Below are positions 1,651 through 33,599 of a stretch of DNA of 64,000 nucleotides, piece by piece (the stretch's first letter is position 1; the number at the start of each line of letters is the position of its first letter). Source of the DNA: an uncultured Gammaproteobacteria bacterium (lineage in GTDB: Bacteria; Patescibacteriota; Microgenomatia; UBA1406; GWC2-37-13); the NCBI GenBank assembly GCA_964488055.1, contig CAZATL010000003.1, forward strand, positions 245 to 64,244, read 5' to 3'. Made by a program: the position numbers and the translations under genes. Below the pieces are notes generated by a model. It ran no database searches. It saw nothing but the letters and a program-made list of their open reading frames with translations, and was not told the DNA's origin.

Positions 1651-1699
1651 CTTTATAGCTATTGTACCAACTAAAGTAGTGTTATAATGAGTGTCAAGT

Positions 1700-2638: not shown

Positions 2639-2650
2639 AAATAGGCTTCA

Positions 2651-4393
2651 CTAAATCCTCTTCTTTTTTGCACGGATAGATACAAATGCAGCATATACAA
2701 CTAATACACCAATCGAGATAAGTGTTACGTACTTGCCAAATCTTCGAACCTTCGTGTCCTCATACACAACAAATGCCTCGTGCTCACCCTTTGGCACACC
2801 GAACGTAATCACACCTCTATATGCCGGGTCCTGGAATTCGATGGGCACTGACGCCCCATCCACATAAGCGGTCCATCCTGGGAAATAGAAGGTGTGATCA
2901 TTCACAGTGACATCTGTGTCAGCTACAACTTTGTATTTTCGGCTGGCATTTTTTATTATTCTATCCACTATCTCACCTCTCCCCTTCACTATCTCACCCT
3001 TTTGTCTTGAGATAGGATATTCTCTCGAATCAAGTGTCCATTTGGGCTGGACCATGAGACCATGATAGTTTTCTGCTGAAAAATAGAACGAGTCCATTGG
3101 TATATTTGTGTAGTTTTTGCCATAAATTTGTGGGAACTGCAAGACAATAACGAGCGAAATGATCGAGCACCACAAAATTAGTCCTATTTTCTTTCTGTGA
3201 CTGCTTATCTCGTACAAATATACAAATAGAATTGAGGAAAAAAAGTATACAACAGACAGGAATCTAGATGGGATCTGAATATTCCCAAGTGTTGGAATAC
3301 TTTCATAAAAGTATTGCGATAGGATTGATCCAAAAAAGAGCGAAATTACAAGTCCTACGAGAGAGATTATGAATACATTTTTCCTGATCTCTGATTTGTT
3401 ATCTGGGCTTACCTCTTCGTCCTTGCTCAATTTCACCAAGAAATTACCTCGCCAGACTACAATAATAGCTATGAGAAATACTGTAAATAGGGTAAGAATT
3501 ATCGTCTCAAGTAACCCAAAGCGTATATCTGCACAGCGCCAAAAAATATAATTCATTTCGACACAAGTGAATCTTGGAAACAAGCTGACAAAGCTCTTGG
3601 CGGTCAAAGCTTGATCATAGACCAAAAGATTGCTATTTGCCGCCATATATAGGTATTTACTCTCAAGCATGAGCGGTAGTAGATAGTAAGAAGATGCGGC
3701 AAGCGCCAGAATAGACGAGAAAATCGTACCCAACCACTTCATGTAGTCAAATCGCAAGAAAACTAAAGCTGCTACAAAAATGGCGGGTGTATATAAGATA
3801 AGTGACATGGGATGTGTCAGGATTAGAAGAGTCAGAAGTATGGCGAATATAAGATAAAATTTCGATCTACTGTACTGCTTGATGTAAAGTATTGTTATAA
3901 ATATATATGGGAGCCAAACTGTTGAGAAAAGCTCTGGCATTGCTCCTCTTACATATATGTTTGTGATCCTGTACGTAGCAAATGTATAGAGAAATGTTCC
4001 CAAGAAGGCGCCACTTGGTGACATAAAAAGCGCCAAAAATATATAAAATCCCATGGCTGATGCAATAAGTGCAATGAAAATGAGCAGGTAGTAGGAAATA
4101 AGCGGACTGTTTGTAACGAATGTCAGCATGCCTCCTATGTAGTTTGGGATCTGGTGTGAGATCGTGCCAACTGGCAAGCCGTAATTAGCAAATCCATCGC
4201 CCCACATCACAGGGAACTCGCCATCCCCCATAGCATTATGAAACTGTGCGATCGTCAGTATGTGCGCATTTGAGTCAAGCATGGCAGCTTTTGAGCCATG
4301 CAAGAGAGGCTCTGCTATGACAAGTATATTGGCAAATATGACAAATACCAGCCACGTGCCGTGTACTCGAGTGAATTTCTTTATACTATCCAT
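2651..4393 (-). CDS. Large polytopic membrane protein, PTPS-related/YfhO-like (putative GT-C-type glycosyltransferase)
   Basis: The 580-aa product has at least 10 hydrophobic helices. Its first loop reads DSNAHILTIAQFHNAMGDGEFPVMWGDGFANYGLP. A roughly 130-aa soluble C-terminal region is followed by a final TM anchor. Family assignment is by resemblance only. Confidence 0.6.
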   Translation of the reverse strand: MDSIKKFTRVHGTWLVFVIFANILVIAEPLLHGSKAAMLDSNAHILTIAQFHNAMGDGEFPVMWGDGFANYGLPVGTISHQIPNYIGGMLTFVTNSPLISYYLLIFIALIASAMGFYIFLALFMSPSGAFLGTFLYTFATYRITNIYVRGAMPELFSTVWLPYIFITILYIKQYSRSKFYLIFAILLTLLILTHPMSLILYTPAIFVAALVFLRFDYMKWLGTIFSSILALAASSYYLLPLMLESKYLYMAANSNLLVYDQALTAKSFVSLFPRFTCVEMNYIFWRCADIRFGLLETIILTLFTVFLIAIIVVWRGNFLVKLSKDEEVSPDNKSEIRKNVFIISLVGLVISLFFGSILSQYFYESIPTLGNIQIPSRFLSVVYFFSSILFVYLYEISSHRKKIGLILWCSIISLVIVLQFPQIYGKNYTNIPMDSFYFSAENYHGLMVQPKWTLDSREYPISRQKGEIVKGRGEIVDRIIKNASRKYKVVADTDVTVNDHTFYFPGWTAYVDGASVPIEFQDPAYRGVITFGVPKGEHEAFVVYEDTKVRRFGKYVTLISIGVLVVYAAFVSIRAKKKRI

Positions 4394-4417
4394 TGTTTAG
4401 ATTATAATATCAAACTG

Positions 4418-4933
4418 ATGCTTATACAAAGATTCAGATATATCTTCGTTGTCTCGGTTCTGATCATTGGCGCGCTCTTCTTGCTCGGGAAGACCAGATA
4501 TATCATAAACCCTATGTCAAGATATGTGCTTCGCAGTACATACATCGCTACCCTCAAAAGTGATAATAAAATTGACGCAGAAAAATTTTGGGAGTTCAGG
4601 GACTTTTACTTTGCAGACACATCCACATTCAAGCATGATAATGTGGGGGGTGATAAACCATTTTTGATATTATCAAATGGTGCGATACAAAGTCTTGATT
4701 TTCTAGTATTGCCAAACTCACCTCTAGCTAATAAATTTGTAATACCAAACGGCGTAAAGATCATTCTACAATCACAGAATGAAGTGGTGTATGAAGACGG
4801 GAAAAGAACCATCATTAGATTCACAAAGGAAATGCCCGAGATGCAAAAAGTGAATGGTTTTTTCAGTTATTTTGGGGTAGATCTCAAAAAATTTGACAAT
4901 TACCTCTGGTACAACGAGACAACTATCTATTAG
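4418..4933 (+). CDS. Hypothetical N-terminally anchored protein
   Basis: The ATG at 4418 gives MLIQRFRYIFVVSVLIIGALFLLGK (signal-anchor) plus a roughly 140-aa soluble part. The longer tracked ORF start at 4298 overlaps the divergent upstream gene. No motif was recognised. Confidence 0.5.
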   Translation: MLIQRFRYIFVVSVLIIGALFLLGKTRYIINPMSRYVLRSTYIATLKSDNKIDAEKFWEFRDFYFADTSTFKHDNVGGDKPFLILSNGAIQSLDFLVLPNSPLANKFVIPNGVKIILQSQNEVVYEDGKRTIIRFTKEMPEMQKVNGFFSYFGVDLKKFDNYLWYNETTIY

Positions 4934-4946
4934 TAAAAGTGCAAAG

Positions 4947-6602
4947 ATGAGATCAATAAGTCTTCATTTGAAAAACTCCAAATATCTTATTCCTAGTGTG
5001 TTGCTTTTCCTTTGTTTAGCGTCACTACTACTTCATTTATACAAGGCGGGTGATCTATGTCTAAATGAAGATGAGGCAGCCCAGGGATACAATACTTATT
5101 CGGTGTTACAAACAGGTAAGGACGAATATGGCAAACTCCCAATCAGATATCTCTCATTTGGCGAAAACAAACTCCCACTAACTGGACTACTTTCAGCACC
5201 ATTTATTTATTTCATAGGACTTAGTGACATAAGCGTTAGATTACCTGTTTACATAATCGGGACAATATTTCCATTGCTTTTTTACTTTGCCACATACTCA
5301 CTTACGAAAAATAAGTCAGTTGCACTTTGTGCAGCATTTTTTTCTACATCGAACTTTTGGCTCCAAGCAACTAGTCGTCACCAGCACGAGGCTGTTGTAC
5401 TATCTGCAATAGTTCTGCTATATATCACCATTCTCTTCTCGAGAAAGACACTCACAAAAAAGTATTTCACGATACTATCGTCGCTCACATTTCTTGGATT
5501 TTATACTTATCATAGTGCCAAGATAATCATTCCTTCCCTTACTGTATTTACAGTATTGTACGTATTTGCCAAAGAGAAATTGGCAATATCCGAGAACCTA
5601 AAGTCTGCACTCTTGGTAGCAGCCATACTATCGATTGGCATAGTGATGTTTGCCTCTACAGAATTTCTGGTGCCAAATAACAGACTGGGGAATCTCTCAT
5701 ATTTTACACACCCAGTTTTCATCCACGAGATTGAAGAAGGTAGAAGACTTGGTGGGTCGCCACTCTTTTACAACAAAGCGGTCTACGGAACTTATAAGCT
5801 TGCCACGAGATCACTCGGCTATCTCTCACCACAGTACCTACTTATAAACTCTGACCCAAACCCAAGATATGGATCTTCATATTTGCCACTTCTATCGATT
5901 GTTGAATACATTTTATTCTTGGTTGGGATAATTATTTCGTGTGTCCAAATCTATTACAAAAGATCGCTTAGCACCAACTTGTTTCTCCATTATTTTATTA
6001 TCATTTCTATTCTCCCTGCATCGCTCGCGCTACCTGTTGGCTCATCAACGAGGAGCTACCTGCTCCTAATTCCAACTATCATACTTACATCACAAGCAGT
6101 TATACATATTTCGAATCACGTGAAAAGATTGGTTTCAAATAAGTATTTTGCTTACTTATTTGTGTTTGTGGTCTTGGCAGTTCACACCTGTTTGGCAGCA
6201 ACTACCTGGGGCAAGTATTTCAATGAATATTTGAGCAACCCAAAGACAAGTATTGCCTGGCAATGCGGCATGAAGCAGGTTGCCAAATATGCCTGGGAAA
6301 ACTACGGTGAGTATGACAAGATAAATATAGCAAGTACCATGGGTCAACCATACATTTTTTTGCTTTTCTATGGTGGTCCATATCCTCCGAGTGAGTACCA
6401 AAAAGTATCAAAGGTTATGCCATACAATACTTACGGATTTTGGGAGCAAGAGACATTCGACAGGTTTACTTTCGCCAAAAGTGCGATATGCGATCCAGAG
6501 GGTAGAACCCTAAACATTACAAATAACAAAGCACTTCTTGGCGCAATAAATATTAACCTTCAAAAATTATCACATGGCTTTTATGCTTTCAGTTGCAAGT
6601 AA
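4947..6602 (+). CDS. GT-C glycosyltransferase, ArnT/PMT (GT39/GT83)-like
   Basis: It is polytopic. The first extracytoplasmic loop carries the acidic motif NEDEAAQGYNTYSVLQTGKDEYGKLP, followed by RLPVYIIGTIFPLLFY. It is a paralog of the next gene. The ATG at 4947 lies just after the upstream stop. Confidence 0.75.
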   Translation: MRSISLHLKNSKYLIPSVLLFLCLASLLLHLYKAGDLCLNEDEAAQGYNTYSVLQTGKDEYGKLPIRYLSFGENKLPLTGLLSAPFIYFIGLSDISVRLPVYIIGTIFPLLFYFATYSLTKNKSVALCAAFFSTSNFWLQATSRHQHEAVVLSAIVLLYITILFSRKTLTKKYFTILSSLTFLGFYTYHSAKIIIPSLTVFTVLYVFAKEKLAISENLKSALLVAAILSIGIVMFASTEFLVPNNRLGNLSYFTHPVFIHEIEEGRRLGGSPLFYNKAVYGTYKLATRSLGYLSPQYLLINSDPNPRYGSSYLPLLSIVEYILFLVGIIISCVQIYYKRSLSTNLFLHYFIIISILPASLALPVGSSTRSYLLLIPTIILTSQAVIHISNHVKRLVSNKYFAYLFVFVVLAVHTCLAATTWGKYFNEYLSNPKTSIAWQCGMKQVAKYAWENYGEYDKINIASTMGQPYIFLLFYGGPYPPSEYQKVSKVMPYNTYGFWEQETFDRFTFAKSAICDPEGRTLNITNNKALLGAININLQKLSHGFYAFSCK

Positions 6603-8322
6603 GCTGGCCAAAGATTATAAAACAGGATTTGTTAAGTATAGTCTTGTTGTCATTGTGGTTGTGATGTCTGCTGTAATAAGGTTACACAAAATTGACACTG
6701 CACCATATGGCACACTAGTTGACGAGGCAAGCTATGGTTATATTGCATACTCTTTGTCAGAAACCGGCAAAGATGAACTTGGAAATGCGCTTCCATTTAG
6801 CTTCAAAGCGTTTGGCGACTACAAGATGCCAGTGTATGCCTATACTTTGGTACCTACCATAAGACTTTTTGGTCTTTCAAATCTATCAGTTAGGTTGCCT
6901 TCTGTGGTCTCCGGGGTGCTTATTACATACCTTACTTATTTCATTCTTAGGAAATTACACCTCGGATTCAGTACTTCGATATTATCAACGCTTATTGTTG
7001 CTTTTTCTCCATGGAGCATTTTGTTGAGTAGGTTTGCCTTCGAATCAAATGTTGCTTTGTTTTTGTTTATGGCTTCCATAGCGTGCTTCGTTTCATACCT
7101 GCAGTCAAGGAACAAATACTTACTAATACTTTCTTCGATATTGCTTGGGTTTACTTGGTATACATATATAGCGTACAGGATGGCGACTATTGGCATCGTG
7201 GTTGCAACTTCAATTTATTTGATTGCAAGCAAGCGCATTACTAGAAGAAGTGTGATTTTATTTATTGCGACCTTCATATTAGTCATTTTGCCACTCATGC
7301 CGACAATATTTTCCTCAAGTGGCACAGCAAGGTTCAGTCAGATCGGACTTTTCTCGAATGAATCGATAGTAAGCGAGATTAGCGAGTTTCGAGGATTGTG
7401 CTACAAGGATTGGCCGAGAGTTGTGTGCAATGTAATAGTCAATAGACCTGTGGCCTGGATAGGATCCATACTACAGAATCTTTTCTCATCTTTATCACTT
7501 GAATTTTTGTTCCTAAGTGGAGATAAGGGTTTGCTTTATTTGACAGTGTCAAACTATGGTGCATTTTTATTGCCGACTATTGTATTGTACTTTGCTGGAA
7601 TCGTAGCGCTTTTTGGTAAGGATAGAAACAAGTCAAGTATCATTTTGTTTGTTTCACTTGTTTTTTTAGCTCTCATCCCTTCGGCACTTGTCGGATTGCC
7701 ACAAAAGGTTAGGCTCTCTCCTTTCTTTCCTTTTGCGATCTTTTTGTTTGCGATGGGATACGAACAAATAATGATATTCCTACATAGGTTTGGCACAAGA
7801 GCAAAAAATGCTTTTACATTAGTGTACGGTGTGATTATTTGCACTCTGGGACTTATATATAGCCTGAACATGACATATGTCCATTTCGTAAAATTCTCAC
7901 AAGAGTATGCAGGACCATTGAGAGGAGCCATAGTTGAAGCAAACTCCAAATACAAAAATATTGACACTTATTTTGCATCAGATCTACACGATGCAATAAT
8001 TCATTATGCTTTTTATACAAAAATAAGTCCAGCAAGCTATCAAAAATTTGCCAAATATAGTGTGCCAGACAGTGGCGACTTCTCACACCCTATAAGTTAT
8101 AAAAATGTGCATATGCAGTCAATCTCTGTCAAAGACATATATTGCATGCAAAAGAATACTGGTAAGGATTTTGTTTTTATTACAACGAAAAATCTTGAAT
8201 TAAGCGGTGAATCTCTCTATCCACCAGTATATAAGTATTTGTCACATGACAAAAACTCGTCACTAATGTATATATATTATTTTGACCATAAAAACGACAT
8301 AAAATGTAACAAAGTTTTGTAG
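6574..8322 (+). CDS. GT-C glycosyltransferase, ArnT/PMT-like (paralog of 4947-6602)
   Basis: VDEASYGYIAYSLSETGKDELGNALPFSFKAFGDYKMPVY and RLPSVVSGVLITYLTYF align with the upstream gene. It is polytopic and overlaps the upstream gene by 29 nt. The start could be 6574 or 6583. Confidence 0.75.
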   Translation: MAFMLSVASKLAKDYKTGFVKYSLVVIVVVMSAVIRLHKIDTAPYGTLVDEASYGYIAYSLSETGKDELGNALPFSFKAFGDYKMPVYAYTLVPTIRLFGLSNLSVRLPSVVSGVLITYLTYFILRKLHLGFSTSILSTLIVAFSPWSILLSRFAFESNVALFLFMASIACFVSYLQSRNKYLLILSSILLGFTWYTYIAYRMATIGIVVATSIYLIASKRITRRSVILFIATFILVILPLMPTIFSSSGTARFSQIGLFSNESIVSEISEFRGLCYKDWPRVVCNVIVNRPVAWIGSILQNLFSSLSLEFLFLSGDKGLLYLTVSNYGAFLLPTIVLYFAGIVALFGKDRNKSSIILFVSLVFLALIPSALVGLPQKVRLSPFFPFAIFLFAMGYEQIMIFLHRFGTRAKNAFTLVYGVIICTLGLIYSLNMTYVHFVKFSQEYAGPLRGAIVEANSKYKNIDTYFASDLHDAIIHYAFYTKISPASYQKFAKYSVPDSGDFSHPISYKNVHMQSISVKDIYCMQKNTGKDFVFITTKNLELSGESLYPPVYKYLSHDKNSSLMYIYYFDHKNDIKCNKVL

Positions 8323-8334
8323 ATAGAATAACTT

Positions 8335-10017
8335 ATGAAAAAGTTTTATCCCAATATTTATAAGATCTTACTTATTGTCGCTGGCATTGTCCTAAATCTT
8401 CTTTTTATCATCCCAAGCATCAAATGGGGATGTGAGGCGAATATTTGTGGGCTGTGGATGGGAGAATGGCATTATCACGATGCGCTATGGCATATTGCCG
8501 TATCACGAGTGTCATTTGAGTCGTTCCCGTTTGTGTATCCTTCCGCATCGGGATTTACACTCACATCATATAACTACCTCTTGGGATTAATCTTACATAT
8601 GCTCGAGATTGTTAAAATCGATTCATTCATTTCATATTTTTATTTGCTTCCAATTATCTCCAATTTGCTATTTGCATGTGCAATATTTCGATATTTGAGT
8701 TTAACCAAGAAAACTGTATCGCAGTCAATATGGATAATATTTTTCACGTACTTTTGCGGCTCTTTCTCATATTTTCTAATCTTTTATAATCAAACTATCG
8801 CTGATTACAGCATTCTTAAGGGGTTTCCAGTCGCCACTACTCTTCAACCAAGTTTCGTACTCTCAAATATTCAATTTTTTATTTCTCTTGCTGTATTTGT
8901 ATATATATTTACTGATATTGTCACAAAGAAATTAGATAAGAAAATGATGCTGATTCACGCTTTTCTTATTACAATTAGTATCGGACTAAAGATGTATACA
9001 AGCATGCTAACTTTGCTTGTAGTCTTCATTGGAGCCGCAGTTTGGTTCGCCAAAGGTCAAAAAATGATAAGTTGTATGTATCTACTCTCAATTTTTGGAT
9101 TTTCAGCTTTTGCTTATTTGGGTTTTTATTTGCCATATGAGTCATACATAAATGGCTTGCCTTTTGCTTTTTATCCACTATCAATTCCACATGTTCTGAC
9201 CGAGTCTCAAAACCTTTTTTACAATAAAGAATTCACTCTTGGAAGATACTACATGATAGGCTTGAATAAGCTGTCTCCACGACTTGTAATGTACGAGCTA
9301 ATTAGCGCAATTATTTTTGTGGTAATTAATTTGGGCACGAGAATACTTTTTCCACTATATTTTATTAAATCTAGACTTAATCTGGAAAATGTGATATTGC
9401 TTGCCGTGAGTCTGACCGGGTTTATTATTCCGATATTTTATATCCAGAAAAGTGGCGGATGGTACAACTCCATCCAGTTCGCTTATTTGAGCATATACAC
9501 AACTGGAATCTTGTCTGCTCTCTTACTAGACAGGATGATAAATGCGAAAAAAAAAGCCTTGAAAATCACCGCAATACTCTTTGCCATTGTCATTATAGTT
9601 TTGTCGCTACCTAATACGATATTTACTCTCAATTTTCTGGTAAAAGATAAAATTCTGATAAGTCAGTCAGAGCTTGATGCATTGTCATTTTTGGCCAGCC
9701 AACAAAATGGCATTGTACTTTCTTTACCCGATGGCAAAAATTCGTCCTACGTGCCTGCACTGTCGCGTAAGATAAGCTATCTCATAGACGACGAACAAGC
9801 AGCACTACTAAACTTGCCCACATCTGATAGAAGGGAGAGAATAGATAAAAGGGACTGTAGCATTTTGAGTGAAATTGACTATATATACCTTAATAACGAA
9901 CACGGACAGGAGTTTTCAAGATGTGGTCAAGTGAAAAAGCAGTTTAGATTAACTTACAAAATTGGAGGGGTAGTAATATTCTCAAGGCTCCAATCTGGAA
10001 TACAAACTCACGAGTGA
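8335..10017 (+). CDS. Polytopic membrane protein, unassigned family B (paralog 1 of 3), GT-C-like
   Basis: The N-terminal loop reads C-x3-C-G...HYHDALWHIAVSRVSFESFPFVYPSASGFTLTSYNYLL. An internal motif GGWYNSIQF is present. The C-terminal soluble block reads SELDALSFL...GIVLSLP...SYVPALSRKISYL. All three blocks are shared with 9982-11715 and 14098-15852. Confidence 0.7.
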   Translation: MKKFYPNIYKILLIVAGIVLNLLFIIPSIKWGCEANICGLWMGEWHYHDALWHIAVSRVSFESFPFVYPSASGFTLTSYNYLLGLILHMLEIVKIDSFISYFYLLPIISNLLFACAIFRYLSLTKKTVSQSIWIIFFTYFCGSFSYFLIFYNQTIADYSILKGFPVATTLQPSFVLSNIQFFISLAVFVYIFTDIVTKKLDKKMMLIHAFLITISIGLKMYTSMLTLLVVFIGAAVWFAKGQKMISCMYLLSIFGFSAFAYLGFYLPYESYINGLPFAFYPLSIPHVLTESQNLFYNKEFTLGRYYMIGLNKLSPRLVMYELISAIIFVVINLGTRILFPLYFIKSRLNLENVILLAVSLTGFIIPIFYIQKSGGWYNSIQFAYLSIYTTGILSALLLDRMINAKKKALKITAILFAIVIIVLSLPNTIFTLNFLVKDKILISQSELDALSFLASQQNGIVLSLPDGKNSSYVPALSRKISYLIDDEQAALLNLPTSDRRERIDKRDCSILSEIDYIYLNNEHGQEFSRCGQVKKQFRLTYKIGGVVIFSRLQSGIQTHE

Positions 10018-11715: not shown

Positions 11716-12538
11716 GCTTGCAATTATAACTGTTGTGTATAGAAATTACGAAATATTACATGACTTCATAGAGTCGCTGGCAAGTCAGACATCATCCTCA
11801 TACAAAGTCTATTTTGTCGACGTCACAGAACCTGACAAAAGAGAGATAATTCCTTGGATCAGAAAAATTGAGGGAAAATACGTTTTCATAGAAAGCGAAA
11901 ACAAAGGATATGCAAGCGGAGTCAATATAGGAATAACGAGCGCCCTCAAGGAGGGCCTGACCCGATTTGCCATCGTGAATCCAGATATAGTATTTGATGA
12001 AAATTTCGTTGTGCACAGCACTCAAGTCATCTCTCAACACCCAAGATGTATTGTTGGAGGAAAAATATACTACGCCAAGGGATTTGAATACCACAAAGAC
12101 AGGTATCAACCATCAGAACTAGGTCGTGTGCTTTGGTATGCAGGAGGGAAGATTGACTGGAAACACGCTGTGTGTAGCCATATAGGAGTCGACGAGGTGG
12201 ACTCTGACAAGTACTCGAAGCCGTGCAAAACTGAATTTGCATCTGGCTGTCTCATGATATATGACAAATCAGTCTATGATATCGTAGGTTCTTGGGATGA
12301 AAATTATTTCATGTACTTCGAGGATACAGATTACTGCGTCAGAGCCACGAAGAAGGGTTTGCCCATTTGGTATGATCCTGCAATCATTATTTACCACAAG
12401 AACGCCCAAAGCACAGGTGGATCAGGCTCTCTGGGGCATGTGAGGTGGATGAATAAATCGCGTATGAGATTTGGCGTAAAATATGCACCCCTTCGTACCA
12501 AAATTCATCTTCTTTGGAACTATGTCTTTGCCAAATAG
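11714..12538 (+). CDS. GT2 glycosyltransferase (rhamnosyl/galactosyl-transferase-like)
   Basis: It starts MLAIITVVYRNYEILHDFIESL, has NKGYASGVNIG, and carries the acidic motif FMYFEDTDYCVRA. It is soluble, at about 274 aa. Confidence 0.8.
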   Translation: MLAIITVVYRNYEILHDFIESLASQTSSSYKVYFVDVTEPDKREIIPWIRKIEGKYVFIESENKGYASGVNIGITSALKEGLTRFAIVNPDIVFDENFVVHSTQVISQHPRCIVGGKIYYAKGFEYHKDRYQPSELGRVLWYAGGKIDWKHAVCSHIGVDEVDSDKYSKPCKTEFASGCLMIYDKSVYDIVGSWDENYFMYFEDTDYCVRATKKGLPIWYDPAIIIYHKNAQSTGGSGSLGHVRWMNKSRMRFGVKYAPLRTKIHLLWNYVFAK

Positions 12539-15852: not shown

Positions 15853-15856
15853 TTTA

Positions 15857-17308: not shown

Positions 17309-17309
17309 G

Positions 17310-18773
17310 CTATCTATTACTTGTTGCATAATTACCAATTAATTTACCAAAAAGCCTTGAAGCAGAGCCCATATACTGTTGATGGATCACGCCATATTTG
17401 AGATGAGCGGTTAACATATTTCTATCGGGCTTCTCATTGGTGGCTGGATTACTAATGTCTTTTAGCACTGCGGTCTGCGTTATAACTGTAAAAAATCCGA
17501 GTAAAAATATGCTCGTTGCATATATTCTGACGTTTCTTCCTGCGCTCCAGATATACTCAAGATTCTTGAGCAATATTAAGACCAGAATTGTAAGCAAAAG
17601 CGGAGTCGTGCGGAGTAGCCAGTCATTGGCAGCACCCAGTCGGGTCTGTGAGATAACACACAAAATGATAATGCACCACCAAGCTAATCTATACTCTGTC
17701 AGACTTACTTTCCTACGAATTGCGATGATTAGTGGCACAAAAATAAGAATATCTACAACCAAAAAAACTATCATGCCGATGATATTTTGAGATGTGCTTT
17801 TTTGATATGTCCAATATGAAGTCATGTGATCATTCAAGATATTTACCTGACTTTTGAAATACAAAAAAACAACCAAACCAAAAACCACACCAGCAAAAGA
17901 AGTAAAAATTGTTCTTTTGTTTACTTTGATGGGCCAAAGGAATGGAATTGATACAAGAAAAATGGAAGCCGATACAAATGGCGACCAAAGGAGACCTAGT
18001 CCTACATAAAGTAATATATTCCTAGTAATACTACTATTTTTTATGTCTACAAAAACAAGATAAGCAAAAAGCCAGGCACTTATTGCATGTTGCGGTGCCC
18101 AAGTCAACTGACTTATGAATGACGGGATTTGCAGTCCTGGTGCATATGACTCAAGATGAGTAAAGGATATTGGAATCTTCCCAAGCAGTACATTCCCTAT
18201 GATATCTATACCACTAATACCAAAAAGGATAAGCAGATACCAGACATTATTCTTACTGAATCTCATAATTCCTATGGCAAAAAGCAAAATGCCAACGCAA
18301 GTGTAAATAAAAGTAGCAATCTCTGCACTTTGCCAGTTACCGAGTAACTTGCCCACGATAGCAGGCGGTATGTAGTAAGCTAGATAATAGACAAGTGTAG
18401 TGTCGCTAACGTAAGGACCCGCGCCGTAGTTTACAGGCCAATCGTAATTTATGAGATCATTTATGATCACGTTATGCTTCGTCCAGTCTCCTCGCTGTAT
18501 CACGTATCCACCTGCTCCAGATATAACAGCCAAAAAAGTAACAAGTGTTATGGTAATCGCCAAATTTTGGGTGCTTGTGCTTGAAATAAAATGCTTGACA
18601 TAATTATCAATACCACCCCTCGTGTGCAGGTACAAGGCATAAAGAAGAAGCGCGATAAGCACTATGCTGTATGGCATCCTGACCCAGAAAAATATGAATA
18701 CAAGACAAGGAAAACTCAAGTACACCATTATCCAAGTATTTAGGGATGAAAATAATCCTTTTATATTTGACAT
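17310..18773 (-). CDS. Polytopic membrane protein (GT-C / O-antigen-polymerase-like, unassigned)
   Basis: The 487-aa product has at least 11 hydrophobic helices. One loop reads QRGDWTKHNVIINDLINYDWPVNYGAGPY. No soluble domain is evident. It is embedded in the GT-C array. Confidence 0.55.
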   Translation of the reverse strand: MSNIKGLFSSLNTWIMVYLSFPCLVFIFFWVRMPYSIVLIALLLYALYLHTRGGIDNYVKHFISSTSTQNLAITITLVTFLAVISGAGGYVIQRGDWTKHNVIINDLINYDWPVNYGAGPYVSDTTLVYYLAYYIPPAIVGKLLGNWQSAEIATFIYTCVGILLFAIGIMRFSKNNVWYLLILFGISGIDIIGNVLLGKIPISFTHLESYAPGLQIPSFISQLTWAPQHAISAWLFAYLVFVDIKNSSITRNILLYVGLGLLWSPFVSASIFLVSIPFLWPIKVNKRTIFTSFAGVVFGLVVFLYFKSQVNILNDHMTSYWTYQKSTSQNIIGMIVFLVVDILIFVPLIIAIRRKVSLTEYRLAWWCIIILCVISQTRLGAANDWLLRTTPLLLTILVLILLKNLEYIWSAGRNVRIYATSIFLLGFFTVITQTAVLKDISNPATNEKPDRNMLTAHLKYGVIHQQYMGSASRLFGKLIGNYATSNR

Positions 18774-18793
18774 ATCATCTATTCACAACTCTA

Positions 18794-19960
18794 TTACATA
18801 AATGGCAACATACTGTCCAGGAACATATTCGATGATATGAAATTCACAACATACCAATACAGAGCTGGCAAAATCGCAAGAAACATCCACCTTACCTGTT
18901 TTTGCTCTAAAAAGCGTCCAGCAGACCCAATGATAACAGGCACAATCGGCACTAGGTATCTAGCAAGATCTCTGTGTTGAACTGTAAGTATAAATCCAAA
19001 ATATACAATTACAAAAAAGAAAAGGGCATCTTTTTTCTTTTGGATTTTGTCAAATAAATAAAGCCAGATTGCCCCAAAGTAAAAAAGCAAGTCCTCAAGA
19101 AAAAAAGTCTTTATTTCTTTTGCAGAAGACTCAAATTGCGAGTAGAAGAATCCTGATGGCACGACAGCTCCAGTATGGAAATATGCAAAGAAGTCACCGT
19201 ACTGTCTCAAGTAAAGTAAGCAAACAGTTAGAAATCCACCAAATGATCCCAATATAATCCAGAGAAGCTTGGGATTGTTTTTACGGCTTGATAAGTAGAG
19301 GTACAAATAGTATATAGCCACTCCCCCGCCCCACAACACCCCGTGTATACGCGTGAAGGATGCATAAGCAGCAAAAATACCTGCCCAGATGTAATGTTTA
19401 TTATTCAACAGAATAGCTGATGCCAAAAGACAGCACATGAATACTATTTCTGACGAACCAGTACTTCGCAGTATCCAGAATCTTGGTAAAAGTAGTGTGA
19501 CAAAAGTCAAAGTGAGGGCATTTTTTGCTTCAAAAATGTTTTTGTAAAACAAATAAAGTAGACATCCCATTAGCATTGATGCGACTAGATTTATGTATAT
19601 CATGCTCTCAAGATACCCCATCATTGGGGCTAATATTTTTATGATGATAGGGTAACCTGGGGTGTGGGCCGCATAGTAAATGGGCTTTAGATCGAGTACT
19701 TTGTATTTTTCGATTTGATCTGATCTATAGTTTGTTTTGGCTGGAATCACAAACATAAGGCCATCATAGTTTCGGTATATTCCCTCAAATCCATACTTCG
19801 CCGCACGGCTAGCTGGCTCACCAACCCGCATGATAAACGGCATCCATACGACAAGCGTAGTCACAAGCGAAAACACTGCAATATATGAAAATTGTTTTGT
19901 GTAGGAAAAATTTTTGGTTCTTGATTTGTATGAGTGGAAAACCTTCATAATATTTTTCAT
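18794..19960 (-). CDS. PIG-V/mannosyltransferase-like GT-C membrane protein (tandem paralog 2)
   Basis: YRNYDGLMFVIPAKTNY...YYAAHTPGYPIIIKILAP matches the YDG..Y..IA...GY style first loop of PIG-V-type (GT76-like) proteins. It aligns along its full length with 19962-21095. Confidence 0.65.
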   Translation of the reverse strand: MKNIMKVFHSYKSRTKNFSYTKQFSYIAVFSLVTTLVVWMPFIMRVGEPASRAAKYGFEGIYRNYDGLMFVIPAKTNYRSDQIEKYKVLDLKPIYYAAHTPGYPIIIKILAPMMGYLESMIYINLVASMLMGCLLYLFYKNIFEAKNALTLTFVTLLLPRFWILRSTGSSEIVFMCCLLASAILLNNKHYIWAGIFAAYASFTRIHGVLWGGGVAIYYLYLYLSSRKNNPKLLWIILGSFGGFLTVCLLYLRQYGDFFAYFHTGAVVPSGFFYSQFESSAKEIKTFFLEDLLFYFGAIWLYLFDKIQKKKDALFFFVIVYFGFILTVQHRDLARYLVPIVPVIIGSAGRFLEQKQVRWMFLAILPALYWYVVNFISSNMFLDSMLPFM

Positions 19961-19961
19961 A

Positions 19962-21095
19962 TTACTTTAAAAATCCGATCTCTAATGGGTAACTAAAACC
20001 AGATATAAACCTAATTACATATAAATATATTGCAGGAGACAAGAGTAATAATCCTGCCTTTACGTAAGGCTTTTTCAACCACTCATGTTGCATAATTATT
20101 ATGAATGGAATTAGCGGTAGGATATATCTCGACATCTCTCTATGCGTCACTGTCAAAACGAACAAAAATGTAAGATAAACATAGATACGTAGAGCAATTG
20201 GAAGCTCCTTAGACTTATTAAGAAGTGTTATCCAAGCTATTCCGAAATAAAACAAAATATCCTCTAGATATTTGTCACTACCCATCCCTTTGGCATTTAT
20301 AAAAAATTGAGAATAAATCATTCCTGTCTGAACGACAACTGATGAGTGGAAGTAAGCCAAGAAATCACCATATTGTCTCTGATATAAAAAACACATGAGG
20401 CCAAACCCTAACATCGAAAAAGACGCTGGGATAAGTATTCTCATGTTTGCTTTGAAGTCATTTCTTCTAATAAATAGATATAAAAATAGAGAGATACCCA
20501 AGATCACTCCAGGTACTCTAGTAAAGCTCGCATACATCGCAAAAAGTCCAGCCAGCAAGTATCTCTCTTTGTAAATAAGGATCAGAGATAAGTTGATGCA
20601 AAATAAAAAGATGATCTCTGATGATCCAGTTGTGCTTGAGATTAGCATTCTCGGCATTAGCAAAATAAGTGTTGTCAGATAGAGTGGCTCTTTTATTTTT
20701 AGGGTATTGTCGATTAGATAATAGATTGATGCAGCAAGCGCTACAGTTCCAATTACGTTTACAAAAAGCATTCCATTCAAATATCCAAACAAAGGTGCGG
20801 CTATCCTTATAAGGACAGGGTAACCTGGCGGATGAATAGCAAAATATTTAGCATCAAATGTCTTGAGACTTGATATGACATCAGCCCTGTAGAGTGACTT
20901 GGCTGCTATTGCATAGAGTGGCCCATCGTATGCGCGCTGCACTAGTTCAAATCCTTTGAGCCTTATTTCGCTTTTTTCAGGCCCAATCTTAAAATAAAAT
21001 GGTGTCCAGACAAGCAAAATTGAAAAGGTAGAAATAAAAGCAAGAATGATATAGGGTCGAAGGATATGTGTAAGTACCATGTGATATCTTTGCAT
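19962..21095 (-). CDS. PIG-V/mannosyltransferase-like GT-C membrane protein (tandem paralog 1)
   Basis: It carries QRAYDGPLYAIAAKSLY...YFAIHPPGYPVLIRIAAP. Later blocks are shared with 18794-19960: RSTGSSEIVF/SSTTGSSEIIF, YASFTR, and QYGDFFAYFH/QYGDFLAYFH. Its stop is 1 nt from the start of the downstream paralog. Confidence 0.65.
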   Translation of the reverse strand: MQRYHMVLTHILRPYIILAFISTFSILLVWTPFYFKIGPEKSEIRLKGFELVQRAYDGPLYAIAAKSLYRADVISSLKTFDAKYFAIHPPGYPVLIRIAAPLFGYLNGMLFVNVIGTVALAASIYYLIDNTLKIKEPLYLTTLILLMPRMLISSTTGSSEIIFLFCINLSLILIYKERYLLAGLFAMYASFTRVPGVILGISLFLYLFIRRNDFKANMRILIPASFSMLGFGLMCFLYQRQYGDFLAYFHSSVVVQTGMIYSQFFINAKGMGSDKYLEDILFYFGIAWITLLNKSKELPIALRIYVYLTFLFVLTVTHREMSRYILPLIPFIIIMQHEWLKKPYVKAGLLLLSPAIYLYVIRFISGFSYPLEIGFLK

Positions 21096-21101
21096 ATTGT
21101 T

Positions 21102-22292
21102 CTATTTTTTCTTCTGTATTTTTGTCTTTTTTCTTCCCAAGAATTGCTTGAAAATATAGCAAATAATCAAAAATACAATTGTAACAGCGATACTGACATA
21201 TATTATTAAGTTTTTGAATTTGACATCCCCTCCTTGCCCCCACTCCCCCCCAAGTACATACGGATAATAGCCTAACAAAAGACCTGTGAAAAACGGCGTC
21301 AACAGAACGAAAATTGATGGGAAAAAAGGAATCATTACAAATAAGTTTAGGAAATACCATGGATGTATCTCGCCGTTTGCGACAACATATAAGACAAGCA
21401 CTGCAACTAAAGCACCAACAATCATATTTTTTAGGGTTTCTAGACCAACCTTTCTACCTAGCAAATTTACTTCGCGTTTATGATGGATGCCAAATGCCAA
21501 GAGCACTGTGGGAAGCGTCATATACTTGACAAAACCACCAAAAAGAAGACTGGTGAGTCCCCAGACTAGATTTTTCTTACTAACCAAGTAATAACCAATT
21601 ATTGCAAAAGACAAAGCTATAAAGTCATTATGACTGTTTATAAGACCCTCGACAATCACAAGTGGTGACAAAGCAAAAACTAAGGCCGACCTCTTATTAG
21701 TTTCGTGTAGACAGTACGTAGCCACAAAGTAAAGCAAAACGTTCGTGAGTTTGAAAAGAAAAAAAGTAAAAGCAAATTTTCCAAAACCCAAAAAGGAAGG
21801 GACAAGTGTGAGAAGTAAGAATGTTGGACCATATGGATATGTACGATGAGTCCAATGCATAAACCTCACCATAGGGTCAGCCGGAAAATCGAGCGCCTTA
21901 TGAAGATATGGATTTTCGCCGTAATGCGTGAATATCCTTGCATCGAAAATGTAGTTAAAAAGATCATGTGAAAGCGCTGGATAGCTCAAAAGCCCAGCAA
22001 CGATACCGACAAAAAGCACCGTTCCGACTGTTACTCTTGGTGGTCTTACTTGAATCGCAACATACGAGAGAGTAATAATTGCGACGAGAACGACGAAAAT
22101 TTGACTAGACAAAATCCTATCATGATAGCCAATACTAACCATGACTTCACGAAAGACTGTCCAGTCTGCATGTTTGACAAGTGTGAAATTGGGATCTGTG
22201 AGCACCCACGACCATAGAACAAGTCCCGACAAGCCAAACAAAAAAAGCGCAATAAAAAACTTTTGATATACTGTTGACATGAAAAGTGGCAA
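21102..22292 (-). CDS. DUF2029/GT87-like polytopic membrane glycosyltransferase
   Basis: SHDLFNYIFDARIFTHYGENPYLHKALDFPADP...THRTYPYGPTFLLL resembles the PimE/DUF2029 first-loop signature. It is polytopic. The start could be TTG 22292 or ATG 22280, and either overlaps the divergent gene's ATG at 22279. Confidence 0.65.
   Translation of the reverse strand: MPLFMSTVYQKFFIALFLFGLSGLVLWSWVLTDPNFTLVKHADWTVFREVMVSIGYHDRILSSQIFVVLVAIITLSYVAIQVRPPRVTVGTVLFVGIVAGLLSYPALSHDLFNYIFDARIFTHYGENPYLHKALDFPADPMVRFMHWTHRTYPYGPTFLLLTLVPSFLGFGKFAFTFFLFKLTNVLLYFVATYCLHETNKRSALVFALSPLVIVEGLINSHNDFIALSFAIIGYYLVSKKNLVWGLTSLLFGGFVKYMTLPTVLLAFGIHHKREVNLLGRKVGLETLKNMIVGALVAVLVLYVVANGEIHPWYFLNLFVMIPFFPSIFVLLTPFFTGLLLGYYPYVLGGEWGQGGDVKFKNLIIYVSIAVTIVFLIICYIFKQFLGRKKTKIQKKK
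22264..22272 (+). promoter_or_regulatory. Extended -10 box TGaTATACT, placed for a leaderless transcript of the 22279 gene
   Basis: TGATATACT occupies 22264-22272. The A of the ATG at 22279 is 7 nt after the last -10 base. Confidence 0.45.
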
Positions 22293-23862
22293 ATTTTTGA
22301 TCTACGGATCTTTTGCAGTAATTGTACTGCTTTTCGCGTATTTCCGCCTGACAATAATAAACACGCACAACGTCGCGTATACATATGATCAGGGACGCGA
22401 TTTCTTGGCGGGCGCACGAATAGTAGTTGACAAAAATCCAGTTTTCATCGGTCCAACGACTGGCATTGGCGGACTCTTCCATGGAGCCTGGTGGTATTAT
22501 GCTACAGCAGCGTCATTTATGATATTTGGCCCTGCCCCCATAAACTATTACTACTTCTTATTTGTGATACATCTTGTATCTTTCATAGTGTGGCTTGTCG
22601 TTGTGAGAAAAGTATTTGGGGATTCATTGGCGCTTATTTCAGGCGTAATCTTATCTTCCGGTTCGTATTATGTCGGAAATCAAACTTTTGCTGGCAACAA
22701 CATACTGACTATTCCATCATTCGCTTTATTCTGCATTTCGCTACTTATCATCCTATCAGGAGGAGATAGTAAAAAGATGTGCAAATCCAAGACTAGCCTA
22801 CTTCTGATCCCATTTCTGTGGGGAGCCTCGACTGGTTTTGTCGCAGAGACAGAGCTATCATTTGGCTTGTTTCTAGTTCCGTCCATAATACTACTTTTTG
22901 CAACAAGCAAAGCAATAAGATCGTATCTATTTCACAAACTTTCCTTTTTGTCGTATGCGATCGGACTTCTCATTCCTTTTTTGCCCAGAATTCTTTTTGA
23001 AGTAAAGAATGGTTTTCTCCAGACTAAGGTGCTTCTTGGATTTTTTACAAAGCCCAAACTATACAATCCACGAAGTTACTCGGAGGTATTTGACGAGAGG
23101 GTGTATGTATTTAGAACATACTGGGAACAAGCTCTTGGGAGCAATTTCCTGGCTTATCTTTCTGCAGCACTGCTTGTCGGGATAGTGGTTTATGTCATTA
23201 TACATAAATATAGGCTGGCAAAAAGCAAATCAGAGACACTACCTATGCCACCTATGCAGAATGAGTTTGTAAGAATTGCAATTGTCTTTGCCACGCTTCT
23301 TGCCGGGCTTTTTGTGTTTTGTCTTGTCTATAGAGATCCATTCTGGGGCAATTATTATGAAGGTATCCAGCTTGGATTTGTTGTTCTGTTTCTGGCACTT
23401 ATCAAGACTGTTCAGCAATTATCCAGAAAGCTTTACCTATTTTTTATCACAATCACAATCCTACTATCCCTACTCACTCTGAAGGATAGGCTTCTGTTCA
23501 CAATGGGTTTTAAGGCAGGTACAGGAGGCCTCAAGATGCAAGAGTCAATCGTGCAGCAAATAGTTGATACACAAAACAAGAAAGGTGACAAGATATTTTG
23601 TGCTAGGGTATATACCCCACCTGTCATTCCGCATACTTATGATTATCTATGGTTCTATCATTACCAAAACAAAGACATTGAGACACCAAGATACGACTAT
23701 GTGGATGGAAAATGCTGGTATATCATTGAGCCCGAATGGAAAGGCTATGAATTCCGACTAGTCGAGTGGAAAAAGAAAAATATTCCTGCAGAAGCAAAAG
23801 AGATCTCAAGTACAAAGATTGAGATAGAGGGCGTGACACTAGTGCAATATACGAATCTATAG
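22279..23862 (+). CDS. GT-C glycosyltransferase, GT39-like family C
   Basis: It carries YDQGRDFLAGARIVVDKNPVFIGPTTGIGGLFHGAWWYY and is polytopic. The C-terminal soluble block YDYLWFYHY...CWYIIEPEWKGY is shared with 23901. Confidence 0.7.
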   Translation: MKSGKFLIYGSFAVIVLLFAYFRLTIINTHNVAYTYDQGRDFLAGARIVVDKNPVFIGPTTGIGGLFHGAWWYYATAASFMIFGPAPINYYYFLFVIHLVSFIVWLVVVRKVFGDSLALISGVILSSGSYYVGNQTFAGNNILTIPSFALFCISLLIILSGGDSKKMCKSKTSLLLIPFLWGASTGFVAETELSFGLFLVPSIILLFATSKAIRSYLFHKLSFLSYAIGLLIPFLPRILFEVKNGFLQTKVLLGFFTKPKLYNPRSYSEVFDERVYVFRTYWEQALGSNFLAYLSAALLVGIVVYVIIHKYRLAKSKSETLPMPPMQNEFVRIAIVFATLLAGLFVFCLVYRDPFWGNYYEGIQLGFVVLFLALIKTVQQLSRKLYLFFITITILLSLLTLKDRLLFTMGFKAGTGGLKMQESIVQQIVDTQNKKGDKIFCARVYTPPVIPHTYDYLWFYHYQNKDIETPRYDYVDGKCWYIIEPEWKGYEFRLVEWKKKNIPAEAKEISSTKIEIEGVTLVQYTNL

Positions 23863-23900
23863 AGACTCATATAGCTATTAATAATCTATCTACTATAACC

Positions 23901-25448
23901 ATGCAGACATCCAAAATAAAATTGCAAAGCAAAAAATATATTTATTATTCATACAGTGTTGTGACAGATTGGATCAATGCAAACAAATTAGTAGTAGTTA
24001 TTCTATTATCCATTTTTGTTCTCGCATTTGTTCTGCGTATATCTGGACTCGACCAAAATCTTCTCTTTGGTTTTGAACAAGGTCGTGACGCACTAAAAGC
24101 CCAGGATATTCACTCTTTCAGAGATATCGTTCTCATTGGGCCAAAGACTGATATAGATGGGATATTTCATGGTGTTTGGTACTACTATCTGGTTGCCATC
24201 TTGTACCTTGTCTCACAGGGCGACCCAGTACTAGTCGTCTACGAGCTCGCAGCCCTAAACGCCCTGAGCGTGTTTGTCGTGTATGCCATCGCCAGAAACC
24301 TAAACATGAGTAAGCCCATGTCGGTTATAGCTTCGCTGTTTGTAGCAGTATCTTTCAATATCGTGATTTATGCCAGATGGCTCTCAAATGTATCACCAAG
24401 CATACTCGTTGTGGCGTGCTTCATGCTGTCTGTCATATTACTTGTGAAAAATAGGAAGGATATATATTGGATACCTACATTTTTTTTCTTTGCACTTCTC
24501 TTCCATTTTGAACTATTACACGGTCTGTATGCGACAGTGCTGCTACTTGTCATAAGTCCTGTATACAGGCTCAAGCTATTCACGAAGAATTGGTGGATCG
24601 GTTTGGGACTTTTTGTAGCAATAAACATACCTTTTGTAATATTCGATATCAAAAACCAGTTTATATTGAGCAAAGGAGTGATTCATTATCTGACAACATC
24701 AAATCTCTCCCCCAAGCCATTCCACGCCATCACTGTCTATACTCTTGGACTTATCCAAGAAATCACAACCACCTTTCACACCAAGATGGCCACAGCTCCT
24801 TTTCTAGCCTTTTTTGTACTACTCATAAAGATACTTACGGATCACAAGTCTAGGTCACAAAGCTCCGTGCAAGTTTTGTTATTTTTCATTGCATGGTCAT
24901 TCCCTTACATGTTTTTACTCAAATACGATCCTCTTGACCAGTTTTATGCAGGGACATCACTTGCTCTCATTTTGGTCTTCACATACGGATTGAGCATTAT
25001 TACCACAAACTCAAACAAGTATTTTGTGTATGGAGCTTCCATCCTATTGTCACTTGGTATGTTTGCTGGTACATACGAAAATATCGCAAGTCGTGAGGGA
25101 ATTTTTTATCATTCTGTACAGAGAAGTATGACCTTGGGTGATCAAAAGAAAGTCATAAGTCAAATGTTTAGCAAAAATACTCCATTTGAGTGGGAGGCTT
25201 TCACAATACCATACTACTATAATGATGCATACAAATATCTCATTCCGTGGTATGGTAATAAACTTGTAGGTAGTAATGCCCAAAGTCTACTTTCTGCACC
25301 TGACAAGGAATTGTATTTTCTGATCATTGAGCCGAGTACTTCAGGCTACTGGCTAGATAGATGGATCAAGGAAAAGGATGGGGTTAGCACAAAAGTAAAA
25401 GAATCCGAATATGGCGAAATGCTCCTCGAAGAGAGATTAAAAAAGTAA
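23901..25448 (+). CDS. GT-C glycosyltransferase, GT39-like family C
   Basis: It carries FEQGRDALKAQDIHSFRDIVLIGPKTDIDGIFHGVWYYY and is polytopic. The C-terminal block reads YKYLIPWYG...YFLIIEPSTSGY. A TACTAT box at 23891-23896 lies directly upstream of the ATG. Confidence 0.7.
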   Translation: MQTSKIKLQSKKYIYYSYSVVTDWINANKLVVVILLSIFVLAFVLRISGLDQNLLFGFEQGRDALKAQDIHSFRDIVLIGPKTDIDGIFHGVWYYYLVAILYLVSQGDPVLVVYELAALNALSVFVVYAIARNLNMSKPMSVIASLFVAVSFNIVIYARWLSNVSPSILVVACFMLSVILLVKNRKDIYWIPTFFFFALLFHFELLHGLYATVLLLVISPVYRLKLFTKNWWIGLGLFVAINIPFVIFDIKNQFILSKGVIHYLTTSNLSPKPFHAITVYTLGLIQEITTTFHTKMATAPFLAFFVLLIKILTDHKSRSQSSVQVLLFFIAWSFPYMFLLKYDPLDQFYAGTSLALILVFTYGLSIITTNSNKYFVYGASILLSLGMFAGTYENIASREGIFYHSVQRSMTLGDQKKVISQMFSKNTPFEWEAFTIPYYYNDAYKYLIPWYGNKLVGSNAQSLLSAPDKELYFLIIEPSTSGYWLDRWIKEKDGVSTKVKESEYGEMLLEERLKK

Positions 25449-29516: not shown

Positions 29517-29553
29517 ATTGTAGATCTAGCAATCGTACCAGATCCCAAGAGAC

Positions 29554-29583: not shown

Positions 29584-29591
29584 TTACGAAT

Positions 29592-33515: not shown

Positions 33516-33599
33516 CGATCTGTATTGTACCAAGGTTGAGACAGCAAGTTGTCACTGGAATAGCTATCCCCCTTGCAAACTATACCCAGCTGTCCTACT

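Follow-up and report, generated by a model that had tools for sequence, protein, structure and literature searches.

Positions 2651 to 25448 of a 64,000-nucleotide stretch of contig CAZATL010000003.1 (hereafter the window) hold an array of 14 genes for polytopic membrane proteins that we assign to the GT-C class of glycosyltransferases. The assignment is well supported for the 12 proteins of families A, B, C, D, G and P, and moderately for the other two, 12483 and 17310 (genes are named by their leftmost coordinate in the window; positions, strands and matches are collected in Table 1). Arrays of this kind, with the same types of companion genes, occur throughout the Microgenomates, and their GT-C members diverge faster than the genes around them. 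The region is probably a clade-typical, fast-evolving island for the assembly or decoration of an extracytoplasmic glycan of the Microgenomates cell envelope.

The array comprises 16 tightly packed genes. A preliminary description of the sequence had counted 14 polytopic membrane proteins among them, and the listing of open reading frames (ORFs) bears this out: the 14 are 377-584 amino acids long, have 5-11 transmembrane (TM) segments as predicted from hydropathy and a positive grand average of hydropathy, and leave only 4298 and the GT2 gene 11714 as non-polytopic members. All 14 GT-C ORFs are intact and full length, and they cover ~95% of the bases between the array limits. The starts given earlier as 4947 and 12522 fall at ATG codons inside longer ORFs, which begin at 4893 and 12483, and the statement that the proteins consist almost entirely of TM helices was slightly overstated, family B having in its model an alpha/beta C-terminal domain of ~110 amino acids. 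The array is not an assembly artefact, because two Logan contigs from run SRR12762274, which are independent assemblies, reproduce two stretches of it with identical proteins and unchanged gene order.

The array proteins were grouped pairwise by BLASTP and phmmer. Four paralogue groups were obtained: A (4893 and 6574; E 1e-16), B (8335, 9982 and 14098; ~28% identity, E 1e-46 to 1e-50), C (15857, 22279 and 23901; E 1e-7 to 1e-14) and D (18794 and 19962; 42% identity, E 8e-85). No pairwise partner was found for 2651 (family P), 12483 (E), 17310 (F) or 21102 (G). The groups that had been proposed from motifs survive this all-against-all alignment, apart from the placing of 12483. That protein shares a DE motif in loop 1 with 4893 and 6574 but has no pairwise match to them, and profile comparison indicates a separate family, closer to that of 2651 than to 4893 and 6574. 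The paralogy of group C holds, while its motifs (D/E)QGRD and FHG.WYYY are present in 22279 and 23901 and degenerate in 15857. In family B the HD..WH motif occurs in 8335 and 9982, 14098 keeping the D and W only, and the cysteine motif reads C-x4-C-G, not C-x3-C-G. Both 2651 and 17310 had been said to stand alone; 17310 is indeed an orphan, but 2651 belongs to the large PTPS_related/YfhO-like family.

Pfam and NCBIfam scans gave direct matches above curated cut-offs for only three of the 14 proteins, so that the others had to be assigned by way of homologue sets, profiles and structure prediction. The three are 2651 (PTPS_related, 35 bits against a cut-off of 26.4), 6574 (PMT at 45.1 and PMT_2 at 38.6 bits, both above the gathering threshold) and 15857 (PMT_2 at 30.3 bits, also above it). 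PMT_2 matches to 19962 (2.6e-3) and 23901 (6.7e-4) fall below threshold, and 4893 and 22279, having no direct PMT or PMT_2 match, are linked to these families through profiles only.

Family profiles were built from 77 related loci, described below, and compared with one another using hhalign. Families A and C are linked at probability 100, as are 4893 and the family of 6574; P is linked to A, C and E at 97-98, and B to A at 88-92. Family E is linked to C at 90-94 and to P at 91.5-97.9, with its DE aligned to the invariant Asp of P; none of its members has a Pfam match, and its profile matches no PDB sequence. Families D, F and G were unlinked to the others, and the comparison of G with D likewise gave no link. 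Among 21 members of family P, PTPS_related was matched by 18, PMT_2 by four and YfhO by two.

External evidence is available for families D and G. The tandem pair 18794/19962 carries the YDG motif noted earlier and is paralogous, as claimed, but its PIG-V affinity is seen only through relatives: one family D member matches PF04188 at 1.2e-7, whereas neither 18794 nor 19962 does so at E<=0.01. Members of the family also match GT87, its profile matches PIG-M (GT50) structures at 1.5e-5, and 19962 has a below-cut-off match to NF046093, 'cell surface glycopolymer formation protein' (2e-14). On these matches the pair is predicted to be PIG-like. The GT87-like character proposed for 21102 is borne out. 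Its product, P0067, has a precomputed match to PF26314, MptA_B_family, though our local copy of Pfam gave no PF26314 match for P0067 or its relatives. Family G is large (1,277 matches in one search and 5,282 representative clusters in another), and seven of 45 distant relatives match GT87 (PF09594), which the 21102 product itself does not; matches to PMT_2, PIG-U, DUF2079 and GT-C_AftD also occur among the distant relatives. The family profile matches a PIG-M structure at 5e-4, while the first family G alignment gave nothing meaningful against PDB sequences and a Pfam scan of close relatives nothing useful.

For three families, B, E and F, Pfam has no model. Family B has 24 detectable homologues in a set of 5.8 billion proteins and family F has 29 homologues, none of either with a Pfam domain, and their profiles gave nothing meaningful against PDB sequences. 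AlphaFold2 models were made for 8335 (family B) and 17310 (family F) and compared with the PDB by Foldseek.

The 8335 model (pLDDT 87, pTM 0.88) has GT-C enzymes as all of its best 23 PDB matches. STT3, AglB and PglB (GT66) come first (E ~2e-7, TM-score ~0.5), followed by DPY19, AftA, ArnT, AftB and ALG3; transporters reach a TM-score of ~0.1. With STT3, AglB and PglB family B shares a GT-C_A TM core followed by a C-terminal extracytoplasmic domain. It was nevertheless rejected as an oligosaccharyltransferase (OST) family: the WWD/WWE motif is missing from 8335, 9982 and 14098, no WWD(Y)G is found, and there is no PDB sequence match. Since AftA, ArnT and DPY19 reach similar TM-scores, the match to OSTs is one of fold and not of family. 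The model thus predicts that family B is a GT-C_A-type enzyme, not an OST.

For 17310 the model (pLDDT 91, pTM 0.93) matches ALG12 (E 1e-2, probability 1.0, TM-score 0.40), AftD (probability 0.99, TM-score 0.40) and ArnT (TM-score 0.35). TM-scores above 0.3 were obtained with GT-C structures only, non-GT-C structures reaching at most 0.15. A transporter or a Wzy/WaaL fold was rejected for this protein (WaaL 0.15 and transporters ~0.1, against 0.35-0.40 for GT-C), which the model supports moderately as a divergent GT-C. No transporter fold emerged for any protein tested, and Pfam, profile-profile and structure comparison together support the earlier description of a dense and diversified GT-C-like set.

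In every family an Asp of the first large loop is near-invariant across dozens of species. The acidic residues of loop 1 are D60/E61 in family A, D40 in P, D49 in B, D37/E59 in C, D60 in E, D96 in F, D66 in D and D110 in G. Those of P (D40), B (D49, together with W52) and F (D96) are invariant, and the DE of family A is conserved in 77 of 80 sequences (4893). This retention, with that of other invariant residues, speaks for purifying selection on a catalytic site. The N-terminal tails of all 14 proteins have a net charge of +2 to +7, which fits an N-in topology with loop 1 outside; the conserved Asp loop would then be outward-facing.

One genome per GTDB species was scanned with the family B profile, which yielded the 77 related loci. 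By record title almost all are from Microgenomates (Woese-, Roizman-, Davies- and Shapirobacteria). Many metagenome-assembled genomes among the records are titled 'uncultured Gammaproteobacteria bacterium' (L003, L007, L011, L012 and others) and one 'Clostridia bacterium' (L074); these titles are probably placeholder or wrong taxonomy labels, and not occurrences outside the candidate phyla radiation (CPR).

Runs of polytopic genes occur at nearly all 77 loci. Across them the window family profiles find 118 ORFs of family B, 116 of P, 113 of A, 112 of C, 15 of G, 11 of E, seven of D and three of F; the 50 loci that span 18 kb or more have a median of eight and a maximum of 11 GT-C ORFs per ~21 kb. 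A flippase homologue is found in 57 of the 77 loci, and the largest unassigned polytopic cluster beside the arrays (55 members) matches the Wzx-type flippase of the window. The companion glycosyltransferases recur as well: the WWPD GT2 in 61 loci, the 11714-type GT2 in 51, the 27917-type GT2 in 47 and the GT4 in 39. Because the related loci share both GT-C runs and companions, the window array is a large example of a clade-wide Microgenomates arrangement and no peculiarity of one genome. In our targeted full-text searches of the literature, GT-C arrays were nowhere described for Microgenomates or CPR, the nearest mention being of GT87 and genes of phosphatidylinositol mannoside (PIM) type in a Saccharibacterium, from another CPR lineage (PMC6031116).

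Other arrays contain polytopic families that the window lacks. One of 21 members (~370-440 amino acids) lies inside other Microgenomates arrays (e.g. L027:16690-17904, L028:18067-19392 and L037:2433-3695), and there are three further clusters of three members each (~500-680, ~780-810 and ~445-465 amino acids). Further GT-C families, or else proteins of Wzy type, may be represented here.

Of the relatives found, the isolate STL-PAT6 (loci L020 and L080) is the closest. Its island is bounded as in the window, by DnaG, sigma-70, GT2 and GT4 at one end and by the flippase at the opposite end. Identity to STL-PAT6 is 93% for sigma-70, 72-78% for the GT2s and GT4 and 71% for the flippase, against 29-58% for the GT-Cs; in L020 it is 78% for GT2 1691 and 73% for GT2 11714, the latter encoded within the array. 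No clear STL-PAT6 orthologue was found for the D pair, 12483, 6574, 8335 or 23901. These identities and absences show that members of the GT-C complement are gained, lost and duplicated, and that they diverge faster than the genes next to them. Such turnover suggests selection for surface-glycan diversity, and we infer diversifying selection on the GT-Cs. At the island edge in L080 (positions 4293-6735, JAXLZQ010000001.1) the counterparts of the GT4, NUDIX and WWPD-GT2 genes are split into ORFs of 280, 87, 100, 57 and 112 amino acids, which suggests pseudogenization or assembly errors.

The flanks provide partners for the array. The earlier description had listed a flippase, a TagA-like GT26, a GT4 and further GT2 genes nearby, and all of these were found by Pfam. 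The two GT2 genes that bracket the array, 1691 and 25453, have the WWPD-x3-RL motif in common, as reported, and are paralogues (full-length identity 26%, BLASTP E 4e-31). In the island as we picture it, the TagA-like GT26, the four GT2s and the GT4 would start or build a glycan on polyprenyl phosphate from nucleotide sugars in the cytoplasm, and the Wzx/MOP flippase would carry the lipid-linked sugar or glycan to the outer leaflet. The 14 GT-C transferases, of about seven sequence families, would then work on the outer face by way of the loop-1 Asp. Each may form one specific linkage, extending, branching or decorating a wall-bound or lipid-anchored polysaccharide, with some perhaps acting on surface proteins. 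Such a scheme has the same logic as the multi-component transmembrane glycosylation systems of Gram-positive bacteria and the assembly of mycobacterial arabinogalactan and lipoarabinomannan, but on a larger scale and gathered at a single locus. The lipid-phosphate donors, the outer-face catalysis and this acceptor are what we infer for the set.

Several observations weigh against this picture. No synthase of GtrB, DPM1 or ArnC type and no GtrA-type flippase was found in the window or the related loci, nor was an LCP ligase catalytic domain, a Wzy polymerase or a polymer ABC exporter identified. TagA/GT26 is present in only five of the 77 related loci. For two of the 14 proteins the support is moderate: for 12483 it is profile-profile comparison only, and for 17310 the Foldseek match at E 1e-2 and TM-score 0.40. 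Whole-protein topology, by crude hydropathy and the positive-inside rule, is ambiguous for about half of the 14.

The search for a donor synthase covered the NCBIfam and PDB matches of the GT2s, Pfam domains of the other window ORFs and a scan of 1,020 ORFs in related loci for RxxGxSK, which we take to be a signature of GtrB/CsbB-like synthases. The four window GT2s match rhamnosyltransferase, GmaR, SunS or generic models, not GtrB, CsbB or DPM1, and all four lack RxxGxSK. The earlier statement that no GtrB/ArnC-type synthase is visible is confirmed for the window by the NCBIfam, PDB and Pfam searches. With neither a polyprenyl-phosphate sugar synthase nor a GtrA flippase found, the donor side of the model is unsupported here. 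An RmlA-like sugar-phosphate nucleotidyltransferase gene (43371-44096; NTP_transferase 1e-59) lies 18 kb from the array, and together with the rhamnosyltransferase-like GT2 11714 it hints that the island uses a dTDP-sugar, possibly rhamnose. The ORF 33573-35114 encodes 513 amino acids with a single TM segment (356-385) and only a C-terminal LytR_C domain (7.5e-9); as no LCP catalytic domain was detected in it, it cannot be called a wall-polymer ligase.

Known systems combine a GT-A enzyme, a GtrA- or Wzx-type flippase and a GT-C, and some pair the soluble GT-A with a small membrane protein (PMC8035078). In the multi-component systems of Gram-positive bacteria these parts are CsbB, GtlA or GacI (GT-A), GtcA or the Wzx-type GacK (flippase) and YfhO, GtlB or GacL (GT-C). 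As in such three-component systems, the window GT-Cs are encoded with GT2s and a Wzx-type flippase, and some family P members match YfhO. Those systems use a single GT-C for each modification and carry one to three at a locus; the window, by contrast, has 14 in a row from about seven families, and neither a GtrB/CsbB-type synthase of C55-P-sugar nor a GtrA flippase was found at the window. Its soluble GT2s could pair with a membrane partner in the manner of GacI and GacJ (PMC8035078). It would be speculation to cast 28815 as the GacJ-like partner that lets a soluble GT2 make polyprenyl-phosphate sugar; its counterparts in L080 and L021 are 66% and 42% identical to it and have the same position, next to the GT2 corresponding to 27917.

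Like the PMT and PMT_2 enzymes (GT39, and ArnT-like GT83), 6574 and 15857 score above Pfam cut-offs, and the DE motif lies after TM1; on the other hand, the scores are low (30-45 bits), and both family A and family C have undergone much expansion and divergence.

A second comparison is with mycobacteria. Assembly of mycobacterial arabinogalactan and lipoarabinomannan (LAM) employs many GT-Cs (EmbA/B/C, AftA-D, MptA/B, PimE), each forming one linkage on the outer face. The window proteins resemble these mycobacterial and corynebacterial enzymes in that 21102 falls in MptA_B_family and families B and F match AftA and AftD structurally. They differ from them at a sequence identity of ~10%, and no genes for synthesis of the donors decaprenyl-phosphate arabinose (DPA) or polyprenyl-phosphate mannose (PPM) were seen. 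The mycobacterial GT-C genes are dispersed in a large genome, whereas those of the window are contiguous in one that is probably below 1 Mb.

The array could serve mainly protein glycosylation, with the PMT-like families A and C and the OST-like family B attaching O- or N-glycans to secreted and surface proteins, for instance pilins, S-layer proteins or adhesins, in place of building a polysaccharide; we regard this as unlikely. The matches of 6574 and 15857 to protein O-mannosyltransferase models speak for it, but the PMT_2 model describes the general GT-C core and takes in ArnT-like transferases of lipids and polymers as well. The same holds for family B, whose best structural matches are OSTs and the C-mannosyltransferase DPY19, but which lacks the OST motif and matches AftA and ArnT about equally by TM-score. 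Families G (MptA_B), D (PIG-V/PIG-M-like) and P (YfhO-like) resemble glycolipid or polymer enzymes, and the constant partners of the arrays, Wzx, GT2 and GT4, are genes of polysaccharide type.

Candidate protein substrates are encoded nearby, which favours protein glycosylation. Genes for predicted secreted or surface proteins cluster at 38528-42950, with a further member at 58982-59713. They encode a C39-like peptidase (38528-39820), a 625-amino-acid protein (39804-41681) that has a signal-like segment at its N terminus, a TM segment at its C terminus and three Lamin Tail Domains, a VanZ-like protein (41642-42085) and two CAP-domain proteins (42030-42950 and 58982-59713). Any of these proteins may belong to the envelope or be a target of glycosylation.

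It is also improbable, in our estimate, that the product is a membrane-anchored lipoglycan, a mannan resembling PIM, lipomannan or LAM, in place of a polymer linked to peptidoglycan, with the MptA_B- and PIG-like enzymes extending an outer-leaflet glycolipid. The membership of 21102 in MptA_B_family, the GT87 matches of its relatives and the resemblance of the D pair to the glycosylphosphatidylinositol mannosyltransferases PIG-V and PIG-M all point this way, as do the lack of an LCP catalytic domain beside the array and the GT87/PIM-type genes noted in Saccharibacteria (PMC6031116). Against this, neither initiation genes of PimA/PimB type nor a polyprenyl-phosphate mannose synthase was identified in the window, families G and D are rarer across the related loci (15 and seven ORFs against 112-118 for each of A, B, C and P), and TagA, which the window encodes, speaks for a wall-polymer primer linked to lipid-PP. 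That many of the 14 are not active transferases, having Agl23-like flippase-associated, carrier-lipid recycling or scaffold roles or being decaying paralogues, is very improbable: 4893 has 'flippase activity-associated protein Agl23' as its best NCBIfam match, below cut-off, relatives differ readily in gene content and the GT4, GT2 and NUDIX genes look fragmented in L080, but all 14 ORFs are intact, each family keeps its loop-1 Asp and other invariant residues, and transporter folds never rose above background.

Table 1. Genes of the GT-C array and its flanks
Feature	Position	Strand	Evidence
Flippase, Wzx/MOP-type, C-terminal part (cut by window start)	39-944	+	Polysacc_synt_3 7e-24
GT26 WecG/TagA-family glycosyltransferase, cytoplasmic, lipid-PP-linked primer as substrate	931-1866	-	PF03808 4e-45
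GT2, WWPD-x3-RL motif, hydrophobic C-terminal helix, paralogue of 25453	1691-2638	+	PF00535 weak
GT-C family P (PTPS_related/YfhO-like)	2651-4393	-	PF10131 7e-9
Small single-pass membrane protein, 211 aa	4298-4933	+	No Pfam/NCBIfam match
GT-C family A member 1 (PMT/Agl23-like, DE in loop 1)	4893-6602	+	TIGR03663 Agl23 3.8e-8, below cut-off
GT-C family A member 2 (PMT/PMT_2)	6574-8322	+	PF02366 1.2e-11, PF13231 1.6e-9
GT-C family B member 1, Microgenomates-specific	8335-10017	+	AlphaFold2 model and Foldseek
GT-C family B member 2	9982-11715	-	28% identity to 8335, E 1e-50
Soluble GT2, rhamnosyltransferase-like, inside array	11714-12538	+	PF00535 3e-8; TIGR01556 5e-17, below cut-off
Probable GT-C, family E	12483-14114	+	hhalign to families P and C
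GT-C family B member 3	14098-15852	+	E 1e-46 to 1e-48 vs 8335 and 9982
GT-C family C member 1 (PMT_2)	15857-17338	-	PF13231 5.9e-7, above cut-off
Probable divergent GT-C, family F (orphan)	17310-18773	-	AlphaFold2 model and Foldseek
GT-C family D member 1 (PIG-V/PIG-M/GT87-like)	18794-19960	-	Family-level matches
GT-C family D member 2	19962-21095	-	42% identity to 18794
GT-C family G (MptA_B_family, GT87-related)	21102-22292	-	PF26314
GT-C family C member 2	22279-23862	+	hhalign probability 100 to 15857 and 23901
GT-C family C member 3	23901-25448	+	PMT_2 6.7e-4, below cut-off; hhalign probability 100 to other C members
GT2, WWPD paralogue	25453-26265	+	PF00535 1e-16; PDB matches GmaR, SunS
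NUDIX ORF	26144-26827	+	Flank, between GT2 25453 and GT4 26781
GT4 (GT-B) glycosyltransferase	26781-27911	+	PF00534 3e-19
GT2 glycosyltransferase	27917-28729	+	PF13641 5e-12
Membrane protein, 233 aa, 3 TM segments, island edge	28815-29516	-	No family match

Some gene boundaries in Table 1 call for comment. The annotated start of 4298 overlaps 2651 by 96 nt, and an internal Met is probably the true start; the protein has a single TM segment and an extracytoplasmic domain of ~140 amino acids, and homologues at 38-54% identity are present in 11 loci, with family P and A genes next to them. There is an overlap of ~120 nt between the NUDIX ORF and the end of 25453, so that the real NUDIX start is probably downstream. 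A GTG-start ORF at 29469-30185 (+) overlaps the N-terminal coding end of 28815 and has neither a homologue in the relatives nor a family match; it is likely spurious.

The window, with a GC content of 35-44%, is bacterial in its genes, which include rpoB/rpoC-sized ORFs, sigma-70, DnaG, a release factor and FtsEX. Scans of the whole 64 kb for tRNAs, and for Rfam families at the gathering threshold, gave no match, despite the presence of a ribosomal-protein and rpoBC region.

Both GT-C enzymes and three-component systems are familiar, and in kind the array is therefore not new. What is unusual is that a genome of probably <1 Mb has 14 such genes side by side, that arrays of this sort are conserved across a whole CPR class, that three of the families lack a Pfam model and that no canonical donor synthase was found, which makes donor supply a concrete question raised by the array. 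Tentatively, and as a possibility that we would not yet call probable, the Microgenomates may build a complex, species-variable envelope heteroglycan almost wholly at the outer surface of the membrane with 8-14 clustered GT-Cs, of which at least families B, E and F could represent new CAZy families of new linkage specificity. Donors might come by a non-canonical route, from soluble GT2s with small membrane partners or from lipid-linked sugars of a host, and in these episymbionts variability of the glycan could set host attachment or phage susceptibility.

CPR bacteria (Patescibacteria), most of them uncultured, have very small genomes and a cell envelope that is almost unknown. Here ~23 kb are given to predicted outer-face glycosyltransferases, and Woese-, Roizman-, Davies- and Shapirobacteria share this kind of arrangement. 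The three well-populated GT-C families without Pfam models, two of them with confident structural models, are targets for biochemistry and CAZy classification. The array marks the surface glycan as a major investment of these cells, one plausibly central to host attachment or phage evasion.

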